Positions 5,763 to 44,751 of a DNA stretch of 64,000 nt are shown piece after piece. The DNA is taken from positions 736,001 to 800,000 of the forward strand of contig CBDCXV010000011.1 in assembly GCA_965223905.1 (NCBI GenBank), written 5' to 3'. Each line of letters starts with the position of its first letter. Positions within the stretch are counted from its first letter, which is position 1. A program made the position numbers and the translations under genes. The notes below the pieces were generated by a model. It saw only the letters and a list, made by a program, of their open reading frames with translations, was not told the DNA's origin and made no database searches. Source of the stretch: Candidatus Latescibacterota bacterium. GTDB lineage: Bacteria; Latescibacterota; UBA2968; UBA8231.

Positions 5763-6596
5763 TCATGCCGGCGTCAGGTGAGCGATCGTTTCGCAATGGG
5801 GTGTCTGGGGAAAGAGGTCGATCGGCTGAAGGGACGGTACTCGAAACCCGCCTTCGCAGAGAACCCTCGCGTCAGCGGCCAGGGACGTTGGGTTGCAGGA
5901 GACGTAACCGAGGGACGGGGGTCTCATTCCGATCAGGGCCCGCAGCACCGACTTGTAGATTCCCGCGCGTGGGGGGTCCGCGATCACGAGATCGAATCTC
6001 CTGTTTTCCGCCATCAGGACGGCGATCACCTTCTCAACACGGCCCGCCCTGAAGGTGCAGTTTCCCCCCGTTCCGTTCTTTTCGGCGTTTCTGCGGGCGT
6101 CGGCAACCGCCTCCTCGACCTGCTCGATTCAAATCACCCTGTCGGCCCGTTTTGCCAGGTGAAGGCTGATGCCTCCTGTCCCGCAGTAGAGGTCGAGGAC
6201 AGTGGCGCCGGTCAGATCACCCGCCAGCGCCAACGATCTGCTCGTACAGAACCGCTGCCTGACCGGTGTTGGTCTGGAAGAAGGCCGCTGAAATCTCGAA
6301 CCCGATCCCTCCGCAGACTTCCGAGATCCTGCCGCTTCCCTTGAGAACGAACTCCCGTTCTCCGATGGCGGCCTGGGCCTTTCCCCGGTGCAGGGTCACG
6401 ACAAAAGTCGTTATCTCCGGAACCCTTTCCAGGACACAGCGAACCAGGTCTCCGACTCCCTTGTCCGGGTACTCTGAGACAACCAGGTTCACCATCACCT
6501 CGCCGGGATTCCTGCCTTCCCGGACCACGCACGGTATCGAGAAGATCCGGTTCGACAGCTGCGACTGGAGACGGCAGTCGAGCACGTCGAAAATCC
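5763..6596 (-). pseudogene. rlmD: 23S rRNA m5U methyltransferase RlmD/RumA, C-terminal part (interrupted and frameshifted)
   Basis: FFQTN, DPPRAG, YVSCNP and DLFPQTPHCE motifs are spread over several frames. Continues from 14545-15006 across the insertion. Confidence 0.9.
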
Positions 6597-6630
6597 GGTA
6601 GTACGTCAGTTTGAAATCGAGTTATCCACA
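6597..6630 (+). repeat. Left terminal inverted repeat containing a DnaA box (TTATCCACA, 6622-6630)
   Basis: GGTAGTACGTCAGTTTGAAATCGAGTTATCCACA. Confidence 0.93.
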
Positions 6631-6671
6631 CCCCAGGAAGTGTAGTATTTACAGTAACATACCTTCCTTAA

Positions 6672-6754
6672 GGGGGCGCGGAGTCCTTGGGAGGATGGAT
6701 TGGTCTTGACTCCGTCCATCCTGTGTGCCAAGGGTCAAGATACTCCGCGCCCCC
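6672..6754 (+). ncRNA. Candidate pseudoknotted RNA, unit 1
   Basis: P1 6672-6684/6742-6754 (13 bp), P2 6685-6690/6728-6733, P3 6692-6699/6715-6722, loop 6703-6710 complementary to 6734-6741. The G-U pairs favour the plus strand. Confidence 0.6.
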
Positions 6755-6771
6755 AGCATTTCGGGGGACAA

Positions 6772-6848
6772 GGGAGCAGGGCCGGTTGTGTGGGAGCGAG
6801 CAGTCCGATGCAGCTCGCTCCGATAAACCATCGGATTGGCCCTGCCCC
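6772..6848 (+). ncRNA. Candidate pseudoknotted RNA, unit 2 (same topology as unit 1)
   Basis: P1 6776-6783/6838-6845, P2 6784-6787/6826-6829, P3 6793-6801/6813-6821, loop 6802-6809 complementary to 6830-6837. Confidence 0.6.
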
Positions 6849-6893
6849 CCACTTGACATTGCCAGCTTGCGCCTCCAACCACAGGAGGCAGAT

Positions 6894-7160
6894 ATGGAAA
6901 GCGGAAAGCTCAAACCAGGATGGCAGGAGGGCATCAAGAAGCTGATCGCAGAAGCAGACCGGCAGGAGGAACTAACTCCGGGTGACGGGGAGGATTTGAG
7001 AGGTGCCCCCCCCGCCTCCACGGGATTCGAGAGCGGCGATCCGGGAAACAGCGGATTCAAGGTCATTTCGGAGAGAACGGAGCGTCTTTTCAAACAACTG
7101 GAGCTGGGCTTCGAGCGCATCAATGCTCTCCGCAAGGCCAGGGGGCTCCCACCCGTCTAA
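6894..7160 (+). CDS. Hypothetical protein, 88 aa
   Basis: AGGAGG at 6883-6888 before the ATG and TTGACA at 6853-6858. Overlaps a convergent ORF. Confidence 0.5.
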   Translation: MESGKLKPGWQEGIKKLIAEADRQEELTPGDGEDLRGAPPASTGFESGDPGNSGFKVISERTERLFKQLELGFERINALRKARGLPPV

Positions 7161-7271
7161 GCGCATCAGTTTCTCCAGCTTTTGGGTTGCCTCTTCCACC
7201 TTAAGTGAGTTAGTGACAGGGGTGTTCAGATACTTTTGAAGCCTCTGTATTTCCTTGTCGAACTGCGCCAT
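6972..7271 (-). CDS. Hypothetical coiled-coil protein, 99 aa
   Basis: GGAG upstream of ATG 7271, strong heptad pattern, co-oriented with the transposase. Confidence 0.6.
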   Translation of the reverse strand: MAQFDKEIQRLQKYLNTPVTNSLKVEEATQKLEKLMRLDGWEPPGLAESIDALEAQLQLFEKTLRSLRNDLESAVSRIAALESRGGGGGTSQILPVTRS

Positions 7272-7290
7272 CGTGATTTTCTCCAAAGGG

Positions 7291-7587
7291 TTAGGCGGTG
7301 GCGATTTGCGGCCCCTGGCTGTTACGAGCAGCCGGGGCCGTGTCTATGTTCAGCATTTTTTTCAATTTCATATCTGTCTGTTTGTAATCTTGCACGGCAG
7401 ATCCATCTGCAATTGAGCCCGGCAGAGCTATTGGTATAGGGCTCCACTTGCCGCCACTGGTCCGATAGTCCCACATGGTTCCATCATCGCAAATCACGAT
7501 GTAGGAGCCATCAAAATGTCCACGCACCATTGCTACAGGCTTTCTGGGTTCCGGAACTGGGACTTCTTGTTGACTATCGTCACACAC
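7291..7587 (-). CDS. Hypothetical protein overlapping the transposase stop
   Basis: ORF track; the start overlaps the transposase 3' end, suggesting translational coupling. Confidence 0.5.
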   Translation of the reverse strand: MCDDSQQEVPVPEPRKPVAMVRGHFDGSYIVICDDGTMWDYRTSGGKWSPIPIALPGSIADGSAVQDYKQTDMKLKKMLNIDTAPAARNSQGPQIATA

Positions 7588-8470
7588 TTTCCTTCTCCAT
7601 TTTCCGGTAGGTTTTGGGACGATCTGGCTTGGGAGCCCTGTAGTCGATCAGGTCCAAGATCCAGCCTATGTCGTAGGGCCATTCGAAGATACCGGCTTTC
7701 ATGGCCGGGGTTTTTCCGTCCAAGCTCATGTGAGGGCGGATGAAGTTGTAGTACAGGAAGTAGAGGCTGCACATGTGAACGTGGTTCTGGAACTTCTTGC
7801 TGAATCCGTTGGTGCTTCGAGTGAACCGCCTCATTCCCATTCGCATGGTGAGGTTCTGACGTTCGACATGTGAGGTAGTGATGTGCTTGGGATCAGGATC
7901 ACCCTTTATCACCGATTTTTCGCTAGTGACTTCGATGGGGAGGGTAAATTTCCCATCTGGAGTATTCGTCGGATACTTGAAAGATTTCACAAGCTGGCTG
8001 TAGTCTACGAAGTTGCCGAAAGCCTTATCTACGGACTCTTGATAGGACCCCAAACCGTCAGTGGTCAGTTGCACTCGATAGGCAAGTCGACTCTGGAGGT
8101 CCTTCATGAACTTCTCGCCGGTTTCAATGGTGCGATCCCCGATCTGGTAAGAGACGATCAACTTACTTTTGGGATCTATGGCAGTCCAGGTCCAGATGTC
8201 CCCGGCAAAGGGAGGGGGATTCTTGGCCGTTTCGACGTTCTTCTTCTTGGCGTAGCAGAAAGCCCATATCTCATCGCACTGAATGCGCTTCGCCCTGACC
8301 ATGCGGACATTCCGGTCATGGAACTCGGCAGCGGCTTCTCCAGCGTCAACGAGCAGCTTCTTGACGGTGTTGAAGGAGCATCGGACAAGGCGGGCAGTGG
8401 CCTGCATCGAGTTGCCTTCTACTAGAAGATTCAGGACTTGCTCACGGTCTGACCTTGGGAGGGTTTTCAT
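7580..8470 (-). CDS. IS1-family DDE transposase (single ORF, N-terminal HTH)
   Basis: LVEGNSMQATARL HTH; IQCDEIW, WTWTAID, QLTTDG and TSHVERQNLTMRMGMRRFTR motifs typical of IS1-type transposases. Intact. Confidence 0.9.
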   Translation of the reverse strand: MKTLPRSDREQVLNLLVEGNSMQATARLVRCSFNTVKKLLVDAGEAAAEFHDRNVRMVRAKRIQCDEIWAFCYAKKKNVETAKNPPPFAGDIWTWTAIDPKSKLIVSYQIGDRTIETGEKFMKDLQSRLAYRVQLTTDGLGSYQESVDKAFGNFVDYSQLVKSFKYPTNTPDGKFTLPIEVTSEKSVIKGDPDPKHITTSHVERQNLTMRMGMRRFTRSTNGFSKKFQNHVHMCSLYFLYYNFIRPHMSLDGKTPAMKAGIFEWPYDIGWILDLIDYRAPKPDRPKTYRKMEKESV

Positions 8471-8510
8471 GCTTGCACAGTTCCTTCTTTGGGAGGGATT
8501 TCATACAAAT

Positions 8511-8539
8511 ATAGTACGAAAAAAACCGTGCAAAATCAA
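8511..8539 (-). promoter_or_regulatory. Sigma-70 promoter for the transposase
   Basis: TTGATT-N17-TACTAT on the minus strand, 40 bp upstream of the ATG. Confidence 0.6.
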
Positions 8540-8569
8540 CGTAATCCAGTTAAAAAACAACTATTTATG

Positions 8570-8605
8570 GCTTCAATGAGGCCGGGGTCCGAAGACCCCG
8601 GAAAG
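8570..8605 (-). CRISPR. Solitary CRISPR repeat unit, type I-G (I-U)-like; not an array
   Basis: Minus strand CTTTCCGGGGTCTTCGGACCCCGGCCTCATTGAAGC: 36 nt, 8-bp GC stem, 3' ATTGAAGC handle. No second copy seen. TATAAT at 8625-8630 upstream. Confidence 0.7.
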
Positions 8606-8758
8606 GCAATGGCAAGGAAAGGATATTATATACAATCTTACCCACGGAGACTGGTAAAGCCTACCGCTTCCGTCCTGATTCCTCCAGGTAGCATGTCATC
8701 TCCCTTCGCGAGCCCGATCCCTCACTCGCCTTCATCTAGGATCAGACCAAGCATTTGT

Positions 8759-8995
8759 CTACTCGCATCGAGCTTTGCAGGTATCGGCAGCTTTACCGGA
8801 CCGGGCAATACAGGCTCTCTTGTCACTGTCCCAAAACCGGGAAAAGCATACCGGTATACTGTCCTCGTAATCCTGCTGGCAATAACTGATACACCGCGCC
8901 TTAGCCTCTTCTGCGGAACAGGAGCTGGCAGGATTGGAACGGCTGCATCCATAGACCAACACAGCGGCCGCGATCAACAGCAGTGCGGGTGTCAT
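8759..8995 (-). CDS. Small cysteine-rich lipoprotein
   Basis: Signal peptide with lipobox VYGC followed by seven more Cys; AAGGAGG SD. Confidence 0.7.
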   Translation of the reverse strand: MTPALLLIAAAVLVYGCSRSNPASSCSAEEAKARCISYCQQDYEDSIPVCFSRFWDSDKRACIARSGKAADTCKARCE

Positions 8996-9037
8996 GCGAC
9001 CTCCTTGGTCAGCTGTCGGAAGCGTCTACGGCGGGGG

Positions 9038-9370
9038 TCAGTCACCGTACAAAATCGAAGGGTGGCCCCACTTTAGATCCCATCCTTTCGCGCCGACGAT
9101 ATAGCGGTGGAAAGAAACGCCCGGATCGGTTTTCGTAGCTGCTTGTAGATCATCAGCTTGGTTCTGCTCGTTGGGTGAATCCATAGTATCGACTTCAACG
9201 ATCCATATTTTGCCGTCCTTGTAGGCGACTATATCGGGAATTCTACCGTTGATAGATTTCGGAGTTGGATGCGTATCTATGTGGTCAGCTTCAACATCAC
9301 AACCTGCTTGCTCAAAAACCTCGACGATTTTGTCCACAGCCAAGTTGTGGACTGTCTGTTCCCATGCCAT
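9038..9370 (-). CDS. Small PD-(D/E)xK nuclease-fold protein
   Basis: RIPDIVAY...IWIVEVDT pattern; AAGGAG SD before ATG 9370. Confidence 0.6.
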   Translation of the reverse strand: MAWEQTVHNLAVDKIVEVFEQAGCDVEADHIDTHPTPKSINGRIPDIVAYKDGKIWIVEVDTMDSPNEQNQADDLQAATKTDPGVSFHRYIVGAKGWDLKWGHPSILYGD

Positions 9371-9487
9371 TCTGAAATCTCCTTTTCGGTCTGCATCAGA
9401 GTAAGGCACACCTGATGCCAGCTCATCGCAAGGCCGTAACTCCCTGTTTCCAGGGAGACCAAGCATTGTATCAGCAGCTTTCTATTG

Positions 9488-9679
9488 TCACTGTTCCATT
9501 TCTATGCGACTACTGTAAGGACTCCCCCACAGGCATACCGAGAGTAGAACCCAGATATACCAGTGACCGCTTGTGTGCTTCGGAGGATATTGCCGGCTGT
9601 AGGTGCGGTAGAGGTTCCACCACCCAACCGCTAAGGGGATCGTCAAGGCCAAGAGAAATGCACCTACATCCTTTCCCAT
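9488..9679 (-). CDS. Small two-TM membrane protein
   Basis: Two hydrophobic segments; lies directly downstream of 9699-9923. Confidence 0.5.
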   Translation of the reverse strand: MGKDVGAFLLALTIPLAVGWWNLYRTYSRQYPPKHTSGHWYIWVLLSVCLWGSPYSSRIEMEQ

Positions 9680-9698
9680 TTAACTACCGTTGGTTTTG

Positions 9699-9923
9699 TT
9701 ATGATTTTCCGTTTTGTTCATCATTGCGGTCGAGTTCTGATCCTACTTTGTTTCCCGCCAGTAACCCCAGTGCTCCCACTATCGCCCCTAGGGGAATCGT
9801 CGCCGGCGCAGCCCAGCCACCTGTAGCGATACCTATACCAGCCCCGATCTTGGCTCCAATAGCAGCGCCAGCGGCTGCTCCGCCTGCTGTTCCAACCAAT
9901 TCCTTTTTCCTTTTCTTCTTCAT
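9699..9923 (-). CDS. Glycine-zipper small membrane protein
   Basis: GxxxG repeats (GTAGGAAAGAAIGAKIGAGIG), basic N-terminus, AAGGAG SD. Confidence 0.7.
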   Translation of the reverse strand: MKKKRKKELVGTAGGAAAGAAIGAKIGAGIGIATGGWAAPATIPLGAIVGALGLLAGNKVGSELDRNDEQNGKS

Positions 9924-9950
9924 GTCCTGTCTCCTTTTTCTGTCTCTGCC

Positions 9951-10025
9951 AAAAAAAAGACCGCGCCGGGGTCTAACCTATCGCACCGAACTCCCCCGAA
10001 GCGGTTGGCGGCGAATCTCGCCGCA
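9951..10025 (-). terminator. Two hairpins followed by a U-tract
   Basis: GCGGCGA/TCGCCGC hairpin, then an ACCGC...GCGGT stem followed by a T-run on the minus strand, downstream of 10038-10217. Confidence 0.45.
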
Positions 10026-10037
10026 CGAAAAATTCCG

Positions 10038-10217
10038 TTACTTCTTTTTCCGACCCGAGCCGGATTTGCGGCCAGACTTCGGCTGATCCTCTTTAGCAGA
10101 GGTCCCGGTCACCGGGACCCTTACGTCTTCCTCTTCCCCGGTGGCGATGCGGCACACCTGCACCGCCAGTGCAATGGGGCTGGACGGTCGAACTTCGCCG
10201 TTAGGTCCTATGGGCAT
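10038..10217 (-). CDS. Small basic protein of the MPxGPxGExRP...RIATGE type, often found next to this IS1 subgroup
   Basis: MPIGPNGEVRPSSPIALAVQVCRIATGEEED plus a Lys/Arg tail. Family link is from recall, not a search. Confidence 0.65.
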   Translation of the reverse strand: MPIGPNGEVRPSSPIALAVQVCRIATGEEEDVRVPVTGTSAKEDQPKSGRKSGSGRKKK

Positions 10218-10303
10218 GATGCCATCCTTTCCGTTAAGGTGTAACGAACGATGCGGCATCGGATTGGGAATGTCAAGCTAATACTTCGATAATCATAGAG
10301 GGA

Positions 10304-10588
10304 TCACGGCGGAAAATCCGCGAGGGCTGCCCGGCGATTGGATAGGCTTTCTTCTCGGACGTCCTCAGCCCTCAGCGGTGCGTTCATGCGTTCCCGCAAG
10401 GCGGCTCCCAAGGCGGAAAGGGTGCGTTCCCGGTCGCCTTTGCGCAGAAGAGCGTGCAAAACCTCTTCGTTTGGCTTCGGGGATCGCAGTTCATCGGAAA
10501 TGGCCTTCGGCAGGGCTTCCTTCGCTCGGCCTTGTTGCCTTTGGGGTTCCATCCAGTTTGACGGTTTTGGCACGGGGTGTTCAGTCAT
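10304..10588 (-). CDS. Hypothetical protein
   Basis: ATGA overlap with the upstream ORF; AGGAG SD. Confidence 0.55.
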   Translation of the reverse strand: MTEHPVPKPSNWMEPQRQQGRAKEALPKAISDELRSPKPNEEVLHALLRKGDRERTLSALGAALRERMNAPLRAEDVREESLSNRRAALADFPP

Positions 10589-10839
10589 TTCTCCTGGTCA
10601 AAGGCAGTGTGGTATCTTTTTGTCAGCAGAACCACGTCCTTGAATGTGGGGAATATGAACCGTTTCGCCCGGCTATCTCCAGTAGCTGTCCAGCGGTTGA
10701 TTTCGAACCTGTTGCTCTCCCGGGATTTCAGGTGGTCGCCGTCCGGGTCCTGTGCGTGCGCTTGGAGTTGCAGGCCGACTTGGATGAGGTCGTGAGCCAT
10801 TTCGAGTAGTTCAGCCCGTAGGTCTTCCGCGTCAGACAT
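10585..10839 (-). CDS. Hypothetical protein
   Basis: ORF track; operon-like spacing. Confidence 0.55.
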   Translation of the reverse strand: MSDAEDLRAELLEMAHDLIQVGLQLQAHAQDPDGDHLKSRESNRFEINRWTATGDSRAKRFIFPTFKDVVLLTKRYHTAFDQEK

Positions 10840-10897
10840 TGGATTCTGTTCCCCTGTTCAGGTTTATTGGCCGTGCCGGGGGTCTGAGACAATACCG

Positions 10898-11149
10898 TTA
10901 CTTCGGATGGTTCTCCAAATGCTCGACGTGGTATTGCCGTAACTCCGTCAACTGGCCTTTGATTTCCGTAAGAGTTTGATCCGTGTTATTCTGACTGGCC
11001 TTGATCCGCTTGCCAATGGCCTTATGGGCTTTGTTGTTAGTTTTGTTGGTCGTCTTCAGCTCGCTTTTCAGGTTGTTGCGCAGTGCTGCATACAGGGCCA
11101 CAACAGCCAAGACAATGGTCCCAACGGCAATCCAGATTTCGGAAGTCAT
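10898..11149 (-). CDS. Small protein with N-terminal TM helix and coiled coil
   Basis: IWIAVGTIVLAVVALYAAL followed by a heptad pattern. Confidence 0.65.
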   Translation of the reverse strand: MTSEIWIAVGTIVLAVVALYAALRNNLKSELKTTNKTNNKAHKAIGKRIKASQNNTDQTLTEIKGQLTELRQYHVEHLENHPK

Positions 11150-11184
11150 GGGAGGGTCCTTCGTTGGGTTGGTTCAAAATTTCT

Positions 11185-11532
11185 TCACGTACCGGAGGTT
11201 CGGTCCCTGATTCGGTTCTTTGTCCTTCTATTGGCCCAAATGGACAATCCTGACAGCCCGCCACAGGCCAAGCCGAATAATCCCAAAAGAATCGCGCCCC
11301 CCCTAGATCCATGAGGAGTTACAAGAAGCGTCACCGAGGCGCCAAATGAAGCCGTGGCAATACCGATGCAGAACGTTCCCATCCACCCTATGGTTTCGAG
11401 ACCTTCGACCTCTTCTTCGGTCAGGGAATACATTCTAAGCGTTCTCGTTTCTTGGATGACATTGACGTTGTTAGCGGAGGATGGTGAAATCTCACCTCCG
11501 CCGCCCTTTTCAGACACTGAGTTCTTGCTCAT
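11185..11532 (-). CDS. Two-TM membrane protein
   Basis: Two C-terminal hydrophobic helices and a basic tail. Confidence 0.6.
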   Translation of the reverse strand: MSKNSVSEKGGGGEISPSSANNVNVIQETRTLRMYSLTEEEVEGLETIGWMGTFCIGIATASFGASVTLLVTPHGSRGGAILLGLFGLACGGLSGLSIWANRRTKNRIRDRTSGT

Positions 11533-11824
11533 GCTTTGAGTCGGAAATGGGTTTTCCCAGATTTTTAATCCCCATCACGACGGCACTGAAAATCCTGGTA
11601 AATCCACACTTCCCGCAATGGAGCAAGATGGCGGGGAAGCACACCCTTCCATGGGGGGACTGTGTTGTCCCGAGCGACGTAAGGCTCATTAAATGTGTAT
11701 TAATGAACCACCTGTTACTACGACATTGGGAACAATTGGGACTTATCCCATTGTCTTCCATCCATTCGTGTATTCTATCTATATCTTCTTCCGTTAGCTT
11801 ACCATCAGCCTCGGGCATTCTCAA
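11510..11824 (-). CDS. Zn-ribbon protein
   Basis: CSQC...CGKCG; AAGGAGG SD. Confidence 0.65.
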   Translation of the reverse strand: MRMPEADGKLTEEDIDRIHEWMEDNGISPNCSQCRSNRWFINTHLMSLTSLGTTQSPHGRVCFPAILLHCGKCGFTRIFSAVVMGIKNLGKPISDSKHEQELSV

Positions 11825-11879
11825 GCCTCCTTAGATGACCTTACGATGATCTTACAATGATCTCATTTCGCCGTTCTCC

Positions 11880-12017
11880 TCACTCCACTCCTGTTCTGCC
11901 ATCCAGGTGGCGGTCGAGGCGGTCGTTGTGACGGTCGATTCGGCTTCCAATGTCTCGCCAAAAGGCACCCAGAGCTGCCAGTACCACGAGCATGGGAATG
12001 ATTTCCGTCCAAGTCAC
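11880..12017 (-). CDS. 45-aa TM plus coiled-coil peptide
   Basis: Manual translation MTWTEIIPMLVVLAALGAFWRDIGSRIDRHNDRLDRHLDGRTGVE; GTG start after AAGGAGG. Not in the ORF track. Confidence 0.6.
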   Translation of the reverse strand: MTWTEIIPMLVVLAALGAFWRDIGSRIDRHNDRLDRHLDGRTGVE

Positions 12018-12039
12018 CTTGGGCCTCCTTCAGGAGGGA

Positions 12040-12309
12040 TCAGCTGCCGTTGACGGGTCCGGGAGTGGGGCATGGATCGAGCCGGCCTTCCACTCTATAC
12101 AACCCCTTTTCCACATAGTCAAGGCGCACATCGATGCGGGCCAGAGCCTTGCCCTGAGCAGACAGTTCCTACTGCATGGCGTTCATCCGGGTGTCCATCA
12201 GGTCCATTCTGGAACTCAGGCTGGAGCTGAATCCCCACTGGCTGCCGATGATGGCAACCAGAAGTCCCAAGAGCACCAGAACGTCCTTCCAGTTCAGTCT
12301 GCCGTTCAT
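12040..12309 (-). pseudogene. TM plus coiled-coil protein with an in-frame TAG at codon 47
   Basis: MNGRLNWKDVLVLLGLLVAIIGSQW...RMNAMQ*ELSAQGKALARIDVRLDYVEKGLYRVEGRL. The heptad pattern continues past the stop at 12169-12171. Confidence 0.55.
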
Positions 12310-12429
12310 CTTGGGCCTCCTTCAGGATAGGTGGTCTCCCACCGCTACCCTGAATTTCTCGCCATGAATAGGGAATGTCAAGCCAAAAACCGCTTGTGGA
12401 CGCCCGTGGGGTACTGTAAGGTATGAGCC

Positions 12430-12663
12430 GTCCGCTTCTCTACACGCAGGATCCGACTGAGGTCGGGTCTCCTGCTGAATGCAATAGCCAGTAGTAGAAC
12501 CCGGCCAAGGGGTCGCACCCCGAGGCAAGGCGAATAGGCAGGACTTTCCCGCGCGTTCCTGCGTGTCAGGGAGGTGGACAAGGCCCGGCACCCTTTTTTT
12601 CGGGGTGTCGTGGTGGCCGAAAAGTCCACCTCGAAACGCGGGAAATCGGTCGTGCAACACCCC
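12430..12663 (+). ncRNA. Candidate structured, switchable RNA (C4/CI antisense-like architecture)
   Basis: 22-bp stem 12430-12451/12557-12579 with 3 G-U pairs and one bulge, internal hairpins, and competing complements at 12624-12632 and 12637-12645. Putative promoter TTGTGG-N17-TAAGGT at 12394-12422. Confidence 0.55.
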
Positions 12664-12777
12664 TCCCAGAAGCATCTCAGTAGCTACAGATCCACCTGTT
12701 CGTCACTGTCTCAAGGGACGGTCCCGGTGTGCCATACCTGGACGGCTGTCCACCGGAAGGGGTTTGTCCACTCCTTC

Positions 12778-13335
12778 TTGCGGGAATGCCGTAGGCCGGG
12801 ACCGCTCTGCTTTTTTCTGTCGTGTCTGGTGCTGATCGGTTGCGCCAGAGACAGCAGCACCACTCCTGAATCTGCCCCCCCTGCGGAGTCAGTCTCCAGA
12901 CCAGATCCAGACGATCTGGACCTTTGGAGCTACGGTTACAACAGCAGCCAAAGGGTGCACATCTTGAGACACACCGCCACCTCAGAAGGGGTGGACTGCA
13001 CGATGTGGATTGAATGCAGGGGGACTCCCAGCTTCCCGGACTTGTATTTCTGGATTCCCAGAGGAGACTTCAATGGTTGGGGAGGCACACCTGGATACGA
13101 TGGGGATTGGCCAGATCAACCGGTCATAAACCTGACATGGGGAGAAGAAAATCCAGAACCTACCAAGATGAATTTGAGCAAGAACACCTTCACTTTTCAG
13201 GACCGGAAATGGAAGGACAAGATGATGTCGAACGACATCCTGTTGATGGAATTGCCGTGGGAACAATACGGCTCACTGTATTTCTATTTCGATCTCAGAG
13301 AAGGAAGACAACTCCTCAGCTACCACTGCTTATGA
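12778..13335 (+). CDS. Putative lipoprotein
   Basis: Basic then hydrophobic signal ending in lipobox LIGC, a Pro/Ser linker and a globular domain. Start uncertain (the ORF is open from 12574). Confidence 0.6.
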   Translation: MRECRRPGPLCFFLSCLVLIGCARDSSTTPESAPPAESVSRPDPDDLDLWSYGYNSSQRVHILRHTATSEGVDCTMWIECRGTPSFPDLYFWIPRGDFNGWGGTPGYDGDWPDQPVINLTWGEENPEPTKMNLSKNTFTFQDRKWKDKMMSNDILLMELPWEQYGSLYFYFDLREGRQLLSYHCL

Positions 13336-13368
13336 ACCACATCCATACCCCTCCCAAGGAGCAACTCG

Positions 13369-13524
13369 ATGACGCTTGCCAGTGAGCTGGTGAAGAAGCT
13401 GGAAGAAGAGCTGTCAGAGACTCAGAAAAAGCTCAAAGCAGAAGAGCAGAAGTCAGACAAATGGAAGAAGAAGGCAGGCGATAGATGGCAAGAGATTGAA
13501 CGTATGAAACGCAACTCGGGTTGA
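13369..13524 (+). CDS. 51-aa charged coiled-coil protein
   Basis: Manual translation MTLASELVKKLEEELSETQKKLKAEEQKSDKWKKKAGDRWQEIERMKRNSG; AAGGAG SD. Confidence 0.6.
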   Translation: MTLASELVKKLEEELSETQKKLKAEEQKSDKWKKKAGDRWQEIERMKRNSG

Positions 13525-13525
13525 C

Positions 13526-13783
13526 TCAATCTATCAGCAGACCGCAGCATTGAATTACAAAACCGAGGACCAAAACAGATACTCCGACCTTTGCTCTTCG
13601 AGAATCCTTGAGCAGTTGCTGGACCATTGGGAGCTTCATGTGGTCTTCCCTTGTCTCTCCTACCCATCGTGAAACTCCAAGCTCGATGGCCTTATCCCTG
13701 GACATGATAATGCCTGAACCCAAAATCACAGCTCCAACAATGTCCATCAGGAGACCAGCTACCTGAATTGATTCAGTAGACAT
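13526..13783 (-). CDS. Two-TM membrane protein
   Basis: Hydrophobic N- and C-terminal helices. Confidence 0.6.
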   Translation of the reverse strand: MSTESIQVAGLLMDIVGAVILGSGIIMSRDKAIELGVSRWVGETREDHMKLPMVQQLLKDSRRAKVGVSVLVLGFVIQCCGLLID

Positions 13784-13784
13784 G

Positions 13785-14289
13785 TCAACCGGTCTTCTGT
13801 TTGGGGTCGAAGTGGATTTCCTGCTTGTCCGTGGAGAGGAAGAGCTGGTCGAGGTACCGCAGTCTGGTGTTCACGGTAGGCGAGGGAGGCACCTGCACCT
13901 TGCCGGCATGAGACAGATCGGTCCGGGAGGTGTGAGCTTCCCGGTCGGTCAGGGCGACGATGTATTTCAGTCGGGCCATAGCAAGTGCTCCGGGAGTAGG
14001 ATGTAGACCGGTTCCTGATTCCAGAAATCGCCTAAGCCTGCAGCCATGTGGGCTTCCATAAGGGTACGAATACCTGTGGCAAGTTCGATATCCAGTGTGG
14101 GGTTGGCCAGAGATTCTCGACGCATATGGGCCATATGGCGCTCATGAGCTGAACGTCCCAAGAGAGGGGGGCAGGTCGACTTTTCGGCGTCGGATGTCTT
14201 CTTTCTTTGCTCGTCGTTTCAAGTCTGAGTAATTCCGTCCAGATTGGTGTTGATTTTTTTTCTCAGAATGGTATTTTTCAAGTGCCATT
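13785..14289 (-). pseudogene. Hypothetical gene(s), probably frameshifted
   Basis: Three short overlapping ORFs (14142-14289, 13967-14161, 13785-13979). The first junction lies next to a G7 run. AAGGAG SD before ATG 14289. Confidence 0.35.
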
Positions 14290-14476
14290 AGGCACTCCTT
14301 TCTTGAGAGGGAAGGAAACGAAAGCAAGGGACTGGAGATAGCCTATGCCAAGGCTTTCGGTCCCTTCTTTCATTTTGGGGTCAAAACGTCATCATGCTGG
14401 GCAATATACGTACTTTGTTCCCAAATCTCCAGGTTCAGCCACGGAATGTCCAGGACGAATCAGATATCCCTAAAAA

Positions 14477-14489
14477 AATCAACCATTTA
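14477..14489 (+). promoter_or_regulatory. IHF consensus site near the right end of the transposon
   Basis: AATCAACCATTTA matches WATCAANNNNTTR and is preceded by an A-tract. Confidence 0.55.
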
Positions 14490-14510
14490 CCTACTGTTTG
14501 TGGATAGAAT

Positions 14511-14544
14511 TGTGGATAACCCAGGTTCAGACTGACGTACTACC
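14511..14544 (-). repeat. Right terminal inverted repeat with a DnaA box (14511-14519); second 8/9 box at 14499-14507
   Basis: Reverse complement GGTAGTACGTCAGTCTGAACCTGGGTTATCCACA. Confidence 0.93.
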
Positions 14545-15006
14545 GAAAATCCGGTTGTAGCGACCGCGGTGGTGCAACCCCAGCAACGTGCCGCCTCCGC
14601 AATCCCTGCCGAAGAACTCCATCTTGTTGCGGTAGAAAAACGGGGCGCGACTCGCAATAATCGGCCTTTGCTCGTCGCAACGGAGACCCTGTTGCTCCAG
14701 TGCATTTTGCAACCATCCGTTCCTTCAATCGCAACTGGTCGCCGTAACGGAGGTCCTACCAGCGGCACCCGCCGCACCCCGAAGTTAGGGCATTCGGAGG
14801 CTACCCGGGGGATCGGGGTGCTCGTTATGCGGTCCGCAGTCGCCTCCCAGATTCTCCCTTTCCTCCTGCGCACGGTTCGCTTCCACACGATCCCCGGGCA
14901 GCGTCCGGCGAACGATGAACTCCGAGTCGTCGATCCTGGCCCAGCCGTCACCCTGGGCCGTTAACTCGCGGATATCTAGCTCAATCCTGTCTCCGCGTCT
15001 TGGCAC
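14545..15006 (-). pseudogene. rlmD: RlmD N-terminal part (TRAM domain, Fe-S region), frameshifted
   Basis: MPRRGDRIELDIRELTAQGDG...LPGDRV, CPNFG, YRNKMEF, spread over several frames. Confidence 0.9.
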
Positions 15007-15053
15007 TGGCCGAAACCGTTACGGTGCTGAATGATGGTGAACCGAGGTACATG

Positions 15054-15107
15054 AAAAAGCGAGGCGCACGAGATGATGCCATTTTCACCATCAAAAGCGC
15101 GCCTCGC
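15054..15107 (-). terminator. Intrinsic terminator after rplQ
   Basis: GCGAGGCGC/GCGCCTCGC stem with a T5 run on the minus strand. Confidence 0.5.
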
Positions 15108-15161
15108 CTTTCGGTTGAGGGAGTGGACGCTCCCGGCCGGGTGGTTCACCCAGGGTCGTCC

Positions 15162-15581
15162 CTATTCTTCTTTCTTTTCCGTTTCCTGACTCGCGGTTGG
15201 ACCTGACGCCGGAGCACGGCTACCTGGCCTGTCGACCAACTCGATTATGCACATCTCGGCACCATCGCCACGCCTCGGCTCACCCTTGACAATCCGTGTG
15301 TACCCGCCGCTGCGGTTGGAGTAGCGCGGACCGATCTCGTCGAAAAGCTTTGCCACTATGCGCTTGTTGGCTATTGTGCGCAGCACCTGGCGACGCGCAT
15401 GCAGATCGCCCCTTTTGGCAAAGGTGATCAGACTCTCGGCGGTTCGCCTCAGTTCCTTCGCTCTCGCCGTTGTTGTATGGATAGCCTCGTGTTCGATCAA
15501 AGAGGTGACCATGTTGCCGAGCATCGCCTTGAGATGACTGCGATCGCGGCTCAGCCTGGCCTTTTTGTTCCTGTGTACCAT
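15162..15581 (-). CDS. rplQ: 50S ribosomal protein L17
   Basis: [24 protein letters not shown]. Confidence 0.98.
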
Positions 15582-32902: not shown

Positions 32903-37006
<4,104 letters not shown>

Positions 37007-37086
37007 GTTGCGCTCCCTTATTCAGTAAGGTCGAGTGCGACCGGATATTCTCACGATGGGTTCGCTGGGCCCGCGGAGTCAGCGAG

Positions 37087-40878
<3,792 letters not shown>

Positions 40879-44211: not shown

Positions 44212-44284
44212 CAGGCCTGGCAGGACTCGAACCTGCAACCGCTGGTTTTGGAGACCAGTGCTCTACCAATTGAGCTACAGACCT
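44212..44284 (-). tRNA. tRNA-Trp (CCA), 3' CCA not encoded
   Basis: AGGTCTG/CAGGCCT acceptor stem, anticodon loop CTCCAAA, GGTTCGAGTCC. Confidence 0.97.
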
Positions 44285-44317
44285 AACAGACTCGTGTGTC
44301 GGTCGACCCGCATTAAT

Positions 44318-44470
44318 TCAACGGGTCTCTCGGTGAGACGTGTGTTTGCGGCAGAACCGGCAGTATTTCCTGTATTCCACGCGGCTGGGATGTGTGCGCC
44401 TGTTCTTGGTGGTCGTGTAGTTGTGCCTGCTGCAACTGTCGCATGCAAGGTGTATTTGGTCGCGTGGCAT
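44318..44470 (-). CDS. rpmG: 50S ribosomal protein L33 (Zn-binding type)
   Basis: Manual translation MPRDQIHLACDSCSRHNYTTTKNRRTHPSRVEYRKYCRFCRKHTSHRETR. Confidence 0.98.
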   Translation of the reverse strand: MPRDQIHLACDSCSRHNYTTTKNRRTHPSRVEYRKYCRFCRKHTSHRETR

Positions 44471-44583
44471 GCCGGGCGTGCCTCAATTCAGCTGACGTTA
44501 CGTGGCGATACAGCCCGCAAAGACCAAGCCGTATCTTGGTCTAACTTGATTCCAGCTATGGAGTTATAAATAACGAGAGTATC

Positions 44584-44659
<76 letters not shown>

Positions 44660-44674
44660 CACGTAACCTGAAAA

Positions 44675-44751
44675 TGGAGCGGGAAACGGGACTCGAACCC
44701 GCGACATCGAGCTTGGAAGGCTCGCGCTCTAGCCAACTGAGCTACTCCCGC
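44675..44751 (-). tRNA. tRNA-Gly (TCC)
   Basis: Cloverleaf GCGGGAG...CTTCCAA...GGTTCGAGTCCC...CCA. Confidence 0.97.

Follow-up and report, generated by a model that had tools for sequence, protein, structure and literature searches.

In DNA of a Candidatus Latescibacterota bacterium, an IS1-family transposon carries near its left tip two tandem hairpin units that share one architecture, in which the apical loop of each unit can pair with an 8-nt bulge in its own stem. This pseudoknot-capable arrangement is common to both units well beyond chance, and the structure is real and statistically unusual. The DNA analysed, referred to below as the window, is the 64,000-nt stretch at positions 736,001-800,000 of contig CBDCXV010000011.1 (assembly GCA_965223905.1), and all coordinates are those of the window. 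The motif is real, undescribed and represented by a single instance. Tentatively, and with somewhat less than an even chance of being right, we read the two units as the structured 5' part of a plus-strand transcript that would lead from near the left inverted repeat of the transposon into a small cargo gene, ORF88. The likely expression context of the units consists of a hairpin that sequesters the Shine-Dalgarno (SD) sequence and of this small open reading frame (ORF) downstream, with an overlapping gene on the opposite strand. This context was absent from the original prediction of the units, which had been made from the bare DNA sequence.

Results

According to the original prediction, both units follow the plan P1-P2-internal loop-P3-apical loop, and this plan can be traced almost base for base in the sequence. 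In unit 1, P1 comprises 13 bp (6672-6684/6742-6754) and P2 comprises 6 bp (6685-6690/6728-6733). The asymmetric internal loop that follows has G6691 on its 5' side and 6722-6727 on its 3' side. P3 consists of 8 bp (6693-6700/6714-6721, the last pair being U.G), or of 9 bp with A6692-U6726, and carries an apical loop of 13 nt (6701-6713). Unit 2 begins with a P1 of 12 positions (6772-6783/6838-6849), in which A6775 is unpaired or part of an A.C pair, followed by a P2 of 4 bp (6784-6787/6826-6829), a P3 of 9 bp (6793-6801/6813-6821) and an apical loop of 11 nt (6802-6812). The motif GUGUG, which had been placed in both internal loops, occurs at 6723-6727 (unit 1) and 6788-6792 (unit 2); three bases of the latter copy are paired by RNAfold, which adds three pairs to P2.

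The feature that sets these hairpins apart is a bulge of 8 nt that, on the 3' side of both units, exactly separates P2 from P1. As had been predicted, each bulge is fully complementary to a segment of its own apical loop. In unit 1, bulge 6734-6741 matches loop segment 6703-6710, and in unit 2, bulge 6830-6837 matches loop segment 6802-6809; both helices contain 8 bp including one G.U. The linker before the loop strand measures 2 nt in unit 1 and 0 nt in unit 2, and the linker after it 3 nt in both. Judged from these lengths by reasoning alone, P3 could stack on the 8-bp helix in an H-type arrangement, and the pseudoknot of unit 2 probably needs one or two outer pairs, G.U included, to fray. 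Two competing interactions are visible in the sequence. Unit 1 does contain the predicted alternative pairing of 6679-6685 with 6708-6714 (7 bp), and the G-run of the spacer between the units is a possible competitor for the C-runs that close either unit; in the minimum free energy (MFE) structure this run pairs 3' of unit 2.

RNAfold, which computes nested pairs only, recovers the nested part of both units; the loop/bulge helices were read from the sequence and evaluated by duplex energies. For 6660-6860 the plus strand folds with -105.9 kcal/mol (z -5.68), and none of 200 dinucleotide shuffles was as stable (0/200). The minus strand of the same segment affords -99.9 kcal/mol (z -5.24). Unit 1 is the most extreme 90-nt segment in a scan of 5800-15200 (z -7.2 on the plus and -7.0 on the minus strand); unit 2 reaches z -4.1 and -4.2, respectively. 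The transposon and its immediate surroundings contain further 90-nt segments whose fold z falls under about -3.6, at 7270-7389, 11470-11559, 12550-12639, 14290-14379 and 15040-15129. The loop/bulge duplexes contribute -10.5 kcal/mol in unit 1 and -9.3 kcal/mol in unit 2. This gain exceeds the cost of freeing the loop (3.7 and 1.0 kcal/mol) in both units, a balance in which the pseudoknot penalty is not counted.

To estimate how often chance would produce such a match, the nested fold was held fixed and the bulge was replaced by shuffled bulges or by random 8-mers from the window (200000 each). An 8-bp match to the loop arose for unit 1 in 1635/200000 shuffled bulges and 1024/200000 random 8-mers, and for unit 2 in 631/200000 and 232/200000. 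These frequencies correspond to approximately 0.1-0.8% per unit and to a joint chance near 1e-5. We also scored the architecture with a descriptor (contiguous P1 and P2 on the 5' strand, a 3' bulge of 7-9 nt, P3, and a loop complementary to the bulge). Unit 1 (36) and unit 2 (37) are the top two of the window on both strands, ahead of matches scoring 34 and 33. Since only 17 matches with a score of at least 36 occur in 1,335,896 nt of other loci, both strands included, two adjacent matches on one strand are unexpected.

We compared the two units with each other by means of a covariance model of unit 1 alone. Run over 6400-7400 with filters off, this model aligned unit 2 from end to end with 26.5 bits (E about 1e-4 for a 1-kb search, E-values being rough) and in register, bulge on bulge and loop on loop. 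In this alignment, 13 of the 28 model pairs are kept with different bases, and one pair is non-standard. With the pseudoknot pairs aligned by bulge position, two are identical, five have changed on both sides and one has changed on one side. MAFFT does not align the two units by structure, and the pair counts were made without its alignment. With default filters, neither unit's model detects the other.

The sequences of the two units had been called unrelated. This is mostly so but slightly overstated: their global alignment scores 41 compared with 23.4 +/- 7.0 in 500 shuffles (maximum 46), and a 17-nt direct repeat (14/17 identical) connects 6697-6713 in P3 and loop of unit 1 with 6833-6849 in bulge and P1 of unit 2, out of structural register. 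The further claim that one architecture in two sequences acts as built-in covariation does not stand as made. It would hold only if the units were homologous; "compensatory" changes separate any pair of stable hairpins. Selection is argued for not by the base differences but by the recurrence, at one place in both units, of a loop-matched bulge of exactly 8 nt. Should both units share an ancestor, the 13 nested pairs and five of eight pseudoknot pairs kept by double changes would constitute genuine covariation at a single locus.

The units are followed by a small hairpin and ORF88 (Table 1). The 286-nt leader folds with -137 kcal/mol (z -5.46), and in both its MFE and its centroid structure an anti-SD strand (6871-6876) pairs with the SD region (6884-6889). 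The predicted fold thus sequesters the SD. The homologues of ORF88 (E 9.9e-13, 6.4e-4 and 6.6e-4) all start at the same methionine. On the opposite strand lies a gene of a family that we call MAQFD, whose homologues (E 1e-12 to 8e-19) have an invariant N-terminus. The two genes are convergent and overlap by 183 coding nt, each with a conserved N-terminus outside the overlap, and gene callers in other assemblies picked either the one or the other. Within the overlap, the mean BLOSUM62 score of mismatches is -0.11 in the MAQFD frame versus -0.75 in the ORF88 frame. The N-terminal 27 residues of ORF88, which lie outside the overlap, have changed conservatively (mean +0.22 over 23 mismatches). Judging by this pattern of conservation, both overlapping genes are probably real, ORF88 less certainly so.

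Two observations connect the units with the ORF88 coding sequence. The 3' strand of P3 in unit 1 (6710-6723) is complementary in 12/14 positions to 6916-6929, which encodes ORF88 codons 8-12, and in the 286-nt fold a 7-bp helix (6662-6668/6925-6931) joins the region just 5' of unit 1 to the same codon 8-12 stretch. Long-range pairing with the coding sequence is possible in both cases. As for the MAQFD protein, an AlphaFold model shows three helices (pLDDT 76.5), for which Foldseek found no match in the PDB at E <= 0.001. A sequence search of the PDB returned generic coiled coils only, and tblastn against plasmids and phages gave no match.

Several features bear on the question as to which strand is transcribed. 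The loop/bulge helices are complete (8 bp) on the plus strand only and shrink to 7 and 6 contiguous pairs on the minus strand. The MFE of the plus strand is lower by 6 kcal/mol, and the arrangement of SD, anti-SD and ATG sits on this strand as well. The original prediction had also described the non-Watson-Crick pairs as G-U on the plus strand. This is correct for four of them and favors the plus strand, but the A6775/C6846 mismatch would be G.U on the minus strand and favors the latter, which makes this part of the strand evidence weak. In 6400-7400 we found 0 terminator-like sites on either strand, and neither hairpin is followed by a U-tract. On these grounds we rejected an intrinsic terminator as an explanation for the hairpins.

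Table 1. Features of the IS1-family element that are discussed in the text.
Feature	Position	Strand	Remarks
Left terminal inverted repeat	6597..6630	+	35 nt, 86% complementary to 14511-14545; TTATCCACA at 6622-6630
Unit 1, P1-P2-P3 extended hairpin with 8-nt 3' bulge	6672..6754	+	read from sequence; RNAfold MFE -51.6
Spacer between units, 17 nt	6755..6771	+	GGGGG run inside
Unit 2, architecture as unit 1, 8-nt 3' bulge	6772..6849	+	read from sequence; RNAfold MFE -47.8
Small anti-SD/SD hairpin of ORF88	6871..6889	+	6-bp helix, 7-nt loop, in fold of 286-nt leader
ORF88, 88 aa	6894..7160	+	AGGAGG 5 nt before ATG; three non-self homologues
MAQFD family gene, small helical protein, 99 aa	6972..7271 (coding 7271-6975)	-	6 homologues
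orf98, orphan ORF, 98 aa	7291..7587	-	overlaps transposase stop by 8 nt
Single-ORF DDE transposase, IS1 family, 296 aa	7580..8470	-	PF03400, 38.6 bits (cutoff 24.1)
Right terminal inverted repeat	14511..14544	-	pairs with 6597-6630

The units had been placed just inside the left end of a mobile element, a location that the inverted repeats, a target duplication and a split host frame confirm. The element measures 7.9 kb, is bounded by 34-nt terminal inverted repeats and an 8-bp target duplication, and contains the units from 75 nt inside its left tip. Within the window, the core of the inverted repeat occurs only at both element ends (0/100 shuffles gave two matches). The duplication GAAAATCC occupies 6589-6596 and 14545-14552, with an uncertainty of about 2 bp at its boundary, and encodes the same residues on both sides. 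The G+C content drops from about 62% outside to about 50% between the inverted repeats. A single rlmD/rumA-like methyltransferase frame on the minus strand is divided between the two flanks (5763-6596 and 14545-15100). Both parts contain in-frame stops and frame changes, and the split host gene is a decayed pseudogene.

Membership in the IS1 family is indicated by the transposase as well as by the inverted repeats with their target duplication. Relatives of the transposase carry the name IS1 family transposase, and the protein matches NF033558 with E 6.7e-19 and 68.6 bits, below the cutoff of 100. The approximately 950 nt between the transposase stop and the left repeat hold orf98, the MAQFD gene, ORF88 and both units; a homologue search with orf98 returned itself alone. 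A Pfam search of 79 frames of at least 60 aa across the element, from which the transposase frame was kept apart for separate testing, gave no match at E <= 0.001 save DUF3482 (E 1e-4, below its cutoff). According to Pfam and PADLOC, the element frames contain no reverse transcriptase, TnpB, IscB, IS110 recombinase, Cas or toxin domain, and NCBIfam, PADLOC and Pfam returned only weak coiled-coil or glycine-zipper noise for the cargo ORFs.

From the transposase to the right repeat, a stretch of 6 kb (8500-14500) contains short ORFs only and no family match; weak hints in this region are a glycine zipper, a SLATT-like two-helix membrane protein and a restriction-endonuclease-like fold. Both inverted repeats include TTATCCACA, at 6622-6630 (+) and 14511-14519 (-), and at the right end a second site, CTATCCACA, is located just inside at 14499-14507 (-). 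These sequences equal the consensus of the DnaA box. The outside end of Tn5 also carries a DnaA box; our literature search returned no paper using that term. Elsewhere in the window, three tRNA genes are clustered at 44212-44751 (-), and rpoB/rpoC-sized ORFs occupy 32903-40878 with ribosomal protein genes close by.

We searched for the motif in related elements, for which a search of genome contigs with the transposase provided 80 loci (48-57% identity, the window's own genome not being among them). The core of the inverted repeat is well conserved in these loci: allowing up to 5 substitutions, we found 93 ends in 58 of the 80. By eye, one repeat overlaps the transposase stop codon in most loci. 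Its partner is found 1.2-6.7 kb upstream and in many cases precedes an inward-pointing promoter of the TTGAC type and an ATG. In at least one case (locus L049, by eye), the promoter and ATG lie at the transposase-distal end and run antisense to the transposase.

None of the methods used revealed the motif at the ends of these elements. With blastn, the RNA gave only a 15-nt match (E 0.71) in the 80 loci. Within 500 nt inside the inverted-repeat ends, 0/93 reached a descriptor score of 34, 3/93 a score of at least 32 and 7/93 a score of at least 30. These counts are at or below the background density per 500 nt of 0.018, 0.050 and 0.138 for the same three thresholds. Single-unit covariance models (R1 and R2), run with default filters over the window and the 80 loci, recovered only themselves below E 0.1 and nothing below E 0.9 outside the window, a negative that is weak because these filters missed the sister unit too. 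With tblastn, the three small ORFs were not found in the 80 loci either (best E 0.34). The 64-kb window contains no other copy of the motif, even partial, the best other matches being 11-13 nt long, and blastn in distant mode with 6590-6900 gave no match in plasmids and phages. This absence from the 80 related loci implies that the motif belongs to a cargo module rather than to the machinery with which this IS1 group transposes, and it argues against a core role of the units in transposition.

The related loci also contain another small ORF. Starting with MPxGPxG, it was detected with tblastn in 40 of the 80 and is present in the window at 10041-10217 (-). At several of these loci, a perfect hairpin of 19-32 bp, unrelated in sequence, lies just before the SD of this ORF, for example at L014 8715-8798, L012 915-1022 and L020 8051-8197.

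Comparison with known RNAs gave no family assignment. At gathering thresholds, Rfam detects only three tRNAs in the whole window. At E up to 10, seven weak matches appear in 6400-7100, all to eukaryotic miRNA, snoRNA or lncRNA models and none to a riboswitch, and c-di-GMP-II, whose topology the original prediction had likened to that of the units, is not among them. The open-access literature that we searched contains no account of such an RNA in IS1-family elements.

Discussion

As to how they would work, a structured leader whose platform sequesters the SD comes closest to the units, which are a member of no described family. As in SD-sequestering leaders, structured domains are followed by a small SD/anti-SD hairpin directly before the start codon, and some tandem riboswitches likewise carry tandem domains. 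Unlike such leaders, the units match no Rfam family, consist almost entirely of Watson-Crick pairs and have no unpaired pocket that is conserved between the two; neither a ligand nor a binding protein is indicated.

Other RNAs resemble the units in topology. The c-di-GMP-II riboswitch (RF01786) folds into a hairpin interrupted by internal loops, and its terminal loop takes part in a pseudoknot, as the loops of the units could. Its second pseudoknot strand lies in the 3' tail, whereas that of the units is a bulge inside P1. In addition, the units give no covariance-model match at E up to 10 and lack the conserved junction nucleotides, in agreement with the earlier remark that ligand-pocket junctions are absent: pairing is nearly complete and no pocket is obvious. 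Twister consists of one extended hairpin whose terminal loop base-pairs with nucleotides in an internal loop of the same stem, an arrangement open to the units as well. However, their pseudoknot would comprise 8 bp compared with a few pairs in twister, a comparison in which core nucleotides are judged by Rfam models alone; twister, pistol and the other self-cleaving ribozymes of Rfam gave no covariance-model match. The preQ1-II pseudoknot is also similar in topology. Tandem units of the same fold but diverged sequence, with a pseudoknot from loop to downstream strand, are known from the exonuclease-resistant and dumbbell elements of flavivirus 3' untranslated regions (UTRs), from which the units differ in kingdom, in position (5' of an ORF) and in junction type.

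Mobile elements offer a different set of comparisons. With RNA-OUT of IS10 and the bridge RNA of IS110 elements (PMC11208160), the units share the position of a stable structured RNA beside an element end. They differ in their enzyme, which is an IS1 DDE transposase in the present element, and in that they show no significant complementarity to element ends or target. Like RNA-OUT, a plus-strand transcript of the units would be antisense to the transposase operon, but it would overlap only the 3' end of the last gene of that operon and not the translation start. An IS110 bridge RNA or seekRNA is not supported, as no IS110-type recombinase adjoins and the best match of the loop segments to ends or target is 6 nt long. 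The omega RNA of TnpB or IscB would call for one of these genes, and neither is found in the element frames. Type III toxin-antitoxin RNA of the ToxI kind is discounted on the grounds that the units are not sequence repeats and the neighboring ORFs have no PADLOC or Pfam toxin match, and a retron msr-msd RNA on the grounds that no reverse transcriptase is adjacent.

If the units are the structured 5' part of a transcript into ORF88, transcription would start near the left inverted repeat and proceed on the plus strand. Each unit would form a long hairpin that is locked onto itself by a loop-to-bulge pseudoknot, and the two units together with the SD-sequestering hairpin would constitute a leader of roughly 240 nt. 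Such a leader would keep translation of ORF88 low, or conditional, unless something opens the SD hairpin, and the units would provide the transcript with a very stable, compact and nuclease-resistant 5' domain. The same transcript would run antisense to the convergent transposase-orf98-MAQFD operon at its 3' end, and a long-lived RNA could damp this operon by antisense pairing or by transcriptional collision. The structures, their statistical excess, the sequestered SD, the conserved downstream ORF and the transposon context are observed here; that the units are transcribed, from which strand, that their pseudoknots form and that they regulate anything is inference. The inward promoters with an ATG beside inverted repeats of related elements speak for such a transcript.

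A number of results weigh against this assignment. No sigma-70-like promoter is predicted between the left repeat and unit 1 (0 found), and a relaxed scan returned only weak candidates with 3/6 matches in the -35 hexamer and spacers of 15 or 19 nt. The minus strand folds almost equally well, and the A6775/C6846 mismatch becomes a wobble on that strand. Neither the motif nor ORF88 was found in the 80 related elements. ORF88 itself overlaps a better-supported gene on the opposite strand, whose frame changes more conservatively in the overlap, and it could be a conserved antisense shadow of that gene, with only 23 informative mismatches arguing otherwise. Finally, near-complete Watson-Crick pairing leaves no obvious ligand pocket for a leader that is supposed to sense something.

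The opposite strand suggests another role. There, the hairpins may form the 3' UTR of the transposase-orf98-MAQFD operon, where they would protect against 3' exonucleases or stop transcription from leaving the element and reading through into the split host gene. The three neighboring genes on this strand are better supported and, read in that direction, finish 123 nt before unit 2; the fold is nearly as stable as on the plus strand, in the whole segment and in the single units, and the A6775/C6846 position gains its G.U. Nevertheless, we consider a 3' UTR unlikely. No U-tract follows either hairpin and no terminator-like site was predicted on either strand, the loop/bulge helices lose their G.U pairs and with them part of their length, and both the exact 8-nt loop-matched bulge in the two units and the plus-strand order of SD, anti-SD and ATG would be left unexplained. 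That both strands fold about equally could also mean that the repeats act as DNA or have no function at all, being nested inverted repeats from palindrome-generating events, an inserted host repeat or sites for a DNA-binding protein. The absence of the motif from the 93 related ends, and its occurrence as a single instance, would fit this explanation, and yet it too appears unlikely. The window contains not even a partial further copy, and the related IS1 transposases work without the motif. Moreover, an identically placed, loop-matched 8-nt bulge in two differing units is improbable without selection, and the non-Watson-Crick positions are mostly G.T on one strand.

Less likely still is a free-standing, processed non-coding RNA carried as cargo, which might serve as a shape-recognized protein sponge, as a nuclease-resistant RNA or as a partner of the adjoining small proteins. 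An architecture duplicated with largely different sequence, and very high pairing with few unpaired bases, would fit recognition by shape better than a ligand pocket, and the adjoining small proteins are conserved and of no known family. However, neither promoter nor terminator marks a discrete gene, the element frames of at least 60 aa contain no known RNA-binding, RNA-guided or RNA-processing domain, and no second instance was found in the window, in plasmids and phages or in the 80 related loci. For the functions named in the original prediction (protein decoy, antitoxin, nuclease-resistant RNA or transposition regulator) we found no direct support, and related IS1 elements do without the motif. 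The most far-reaching proposal, which we regard as distinctly improbable, is that the units represent a new class of self-locking RNA modules defined by shape, in which the apical loop clamps an 8-nt bulge of its own stem. As transposon cargo, such nuclease-proof or protein-titrating modules would balance the two convergent overlapping small genes and the transposase operon.

The idea of a bridge-RNA-like transposition guide, whose unpaired segments would recognize the target and the ends of the element, is close to refuted. The RNA does have two domains, measures 178 nt and lies beside an element end, and the bridge RNA of IS621 is said to be of similar size. The bulge of unit 2 is also complementary to 6 nt of the duplicated target, but matches of at least 6 nt arise in 4260/5000 random segment sets. 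The enzyme is of the IS1 DDE type and not an IS110 recombinase, no other enzyme domain was detected in the element, and relatives with the same inverted repeats lack the RNA.

At present, the value of the two units lies in a single well-formed instance that provides a defined target for checks, rather than in an established class of RNA. If the fold is real and conserved, it would represent a new pseudoknot architecture among bacterial structured RNAs, and the element would be a rare DDE-type insertion sequence with both a structured RNA and a pair of overlapping antisense genes. In that case, the units would bear on the regulation or stabilization of cargo by transposons.

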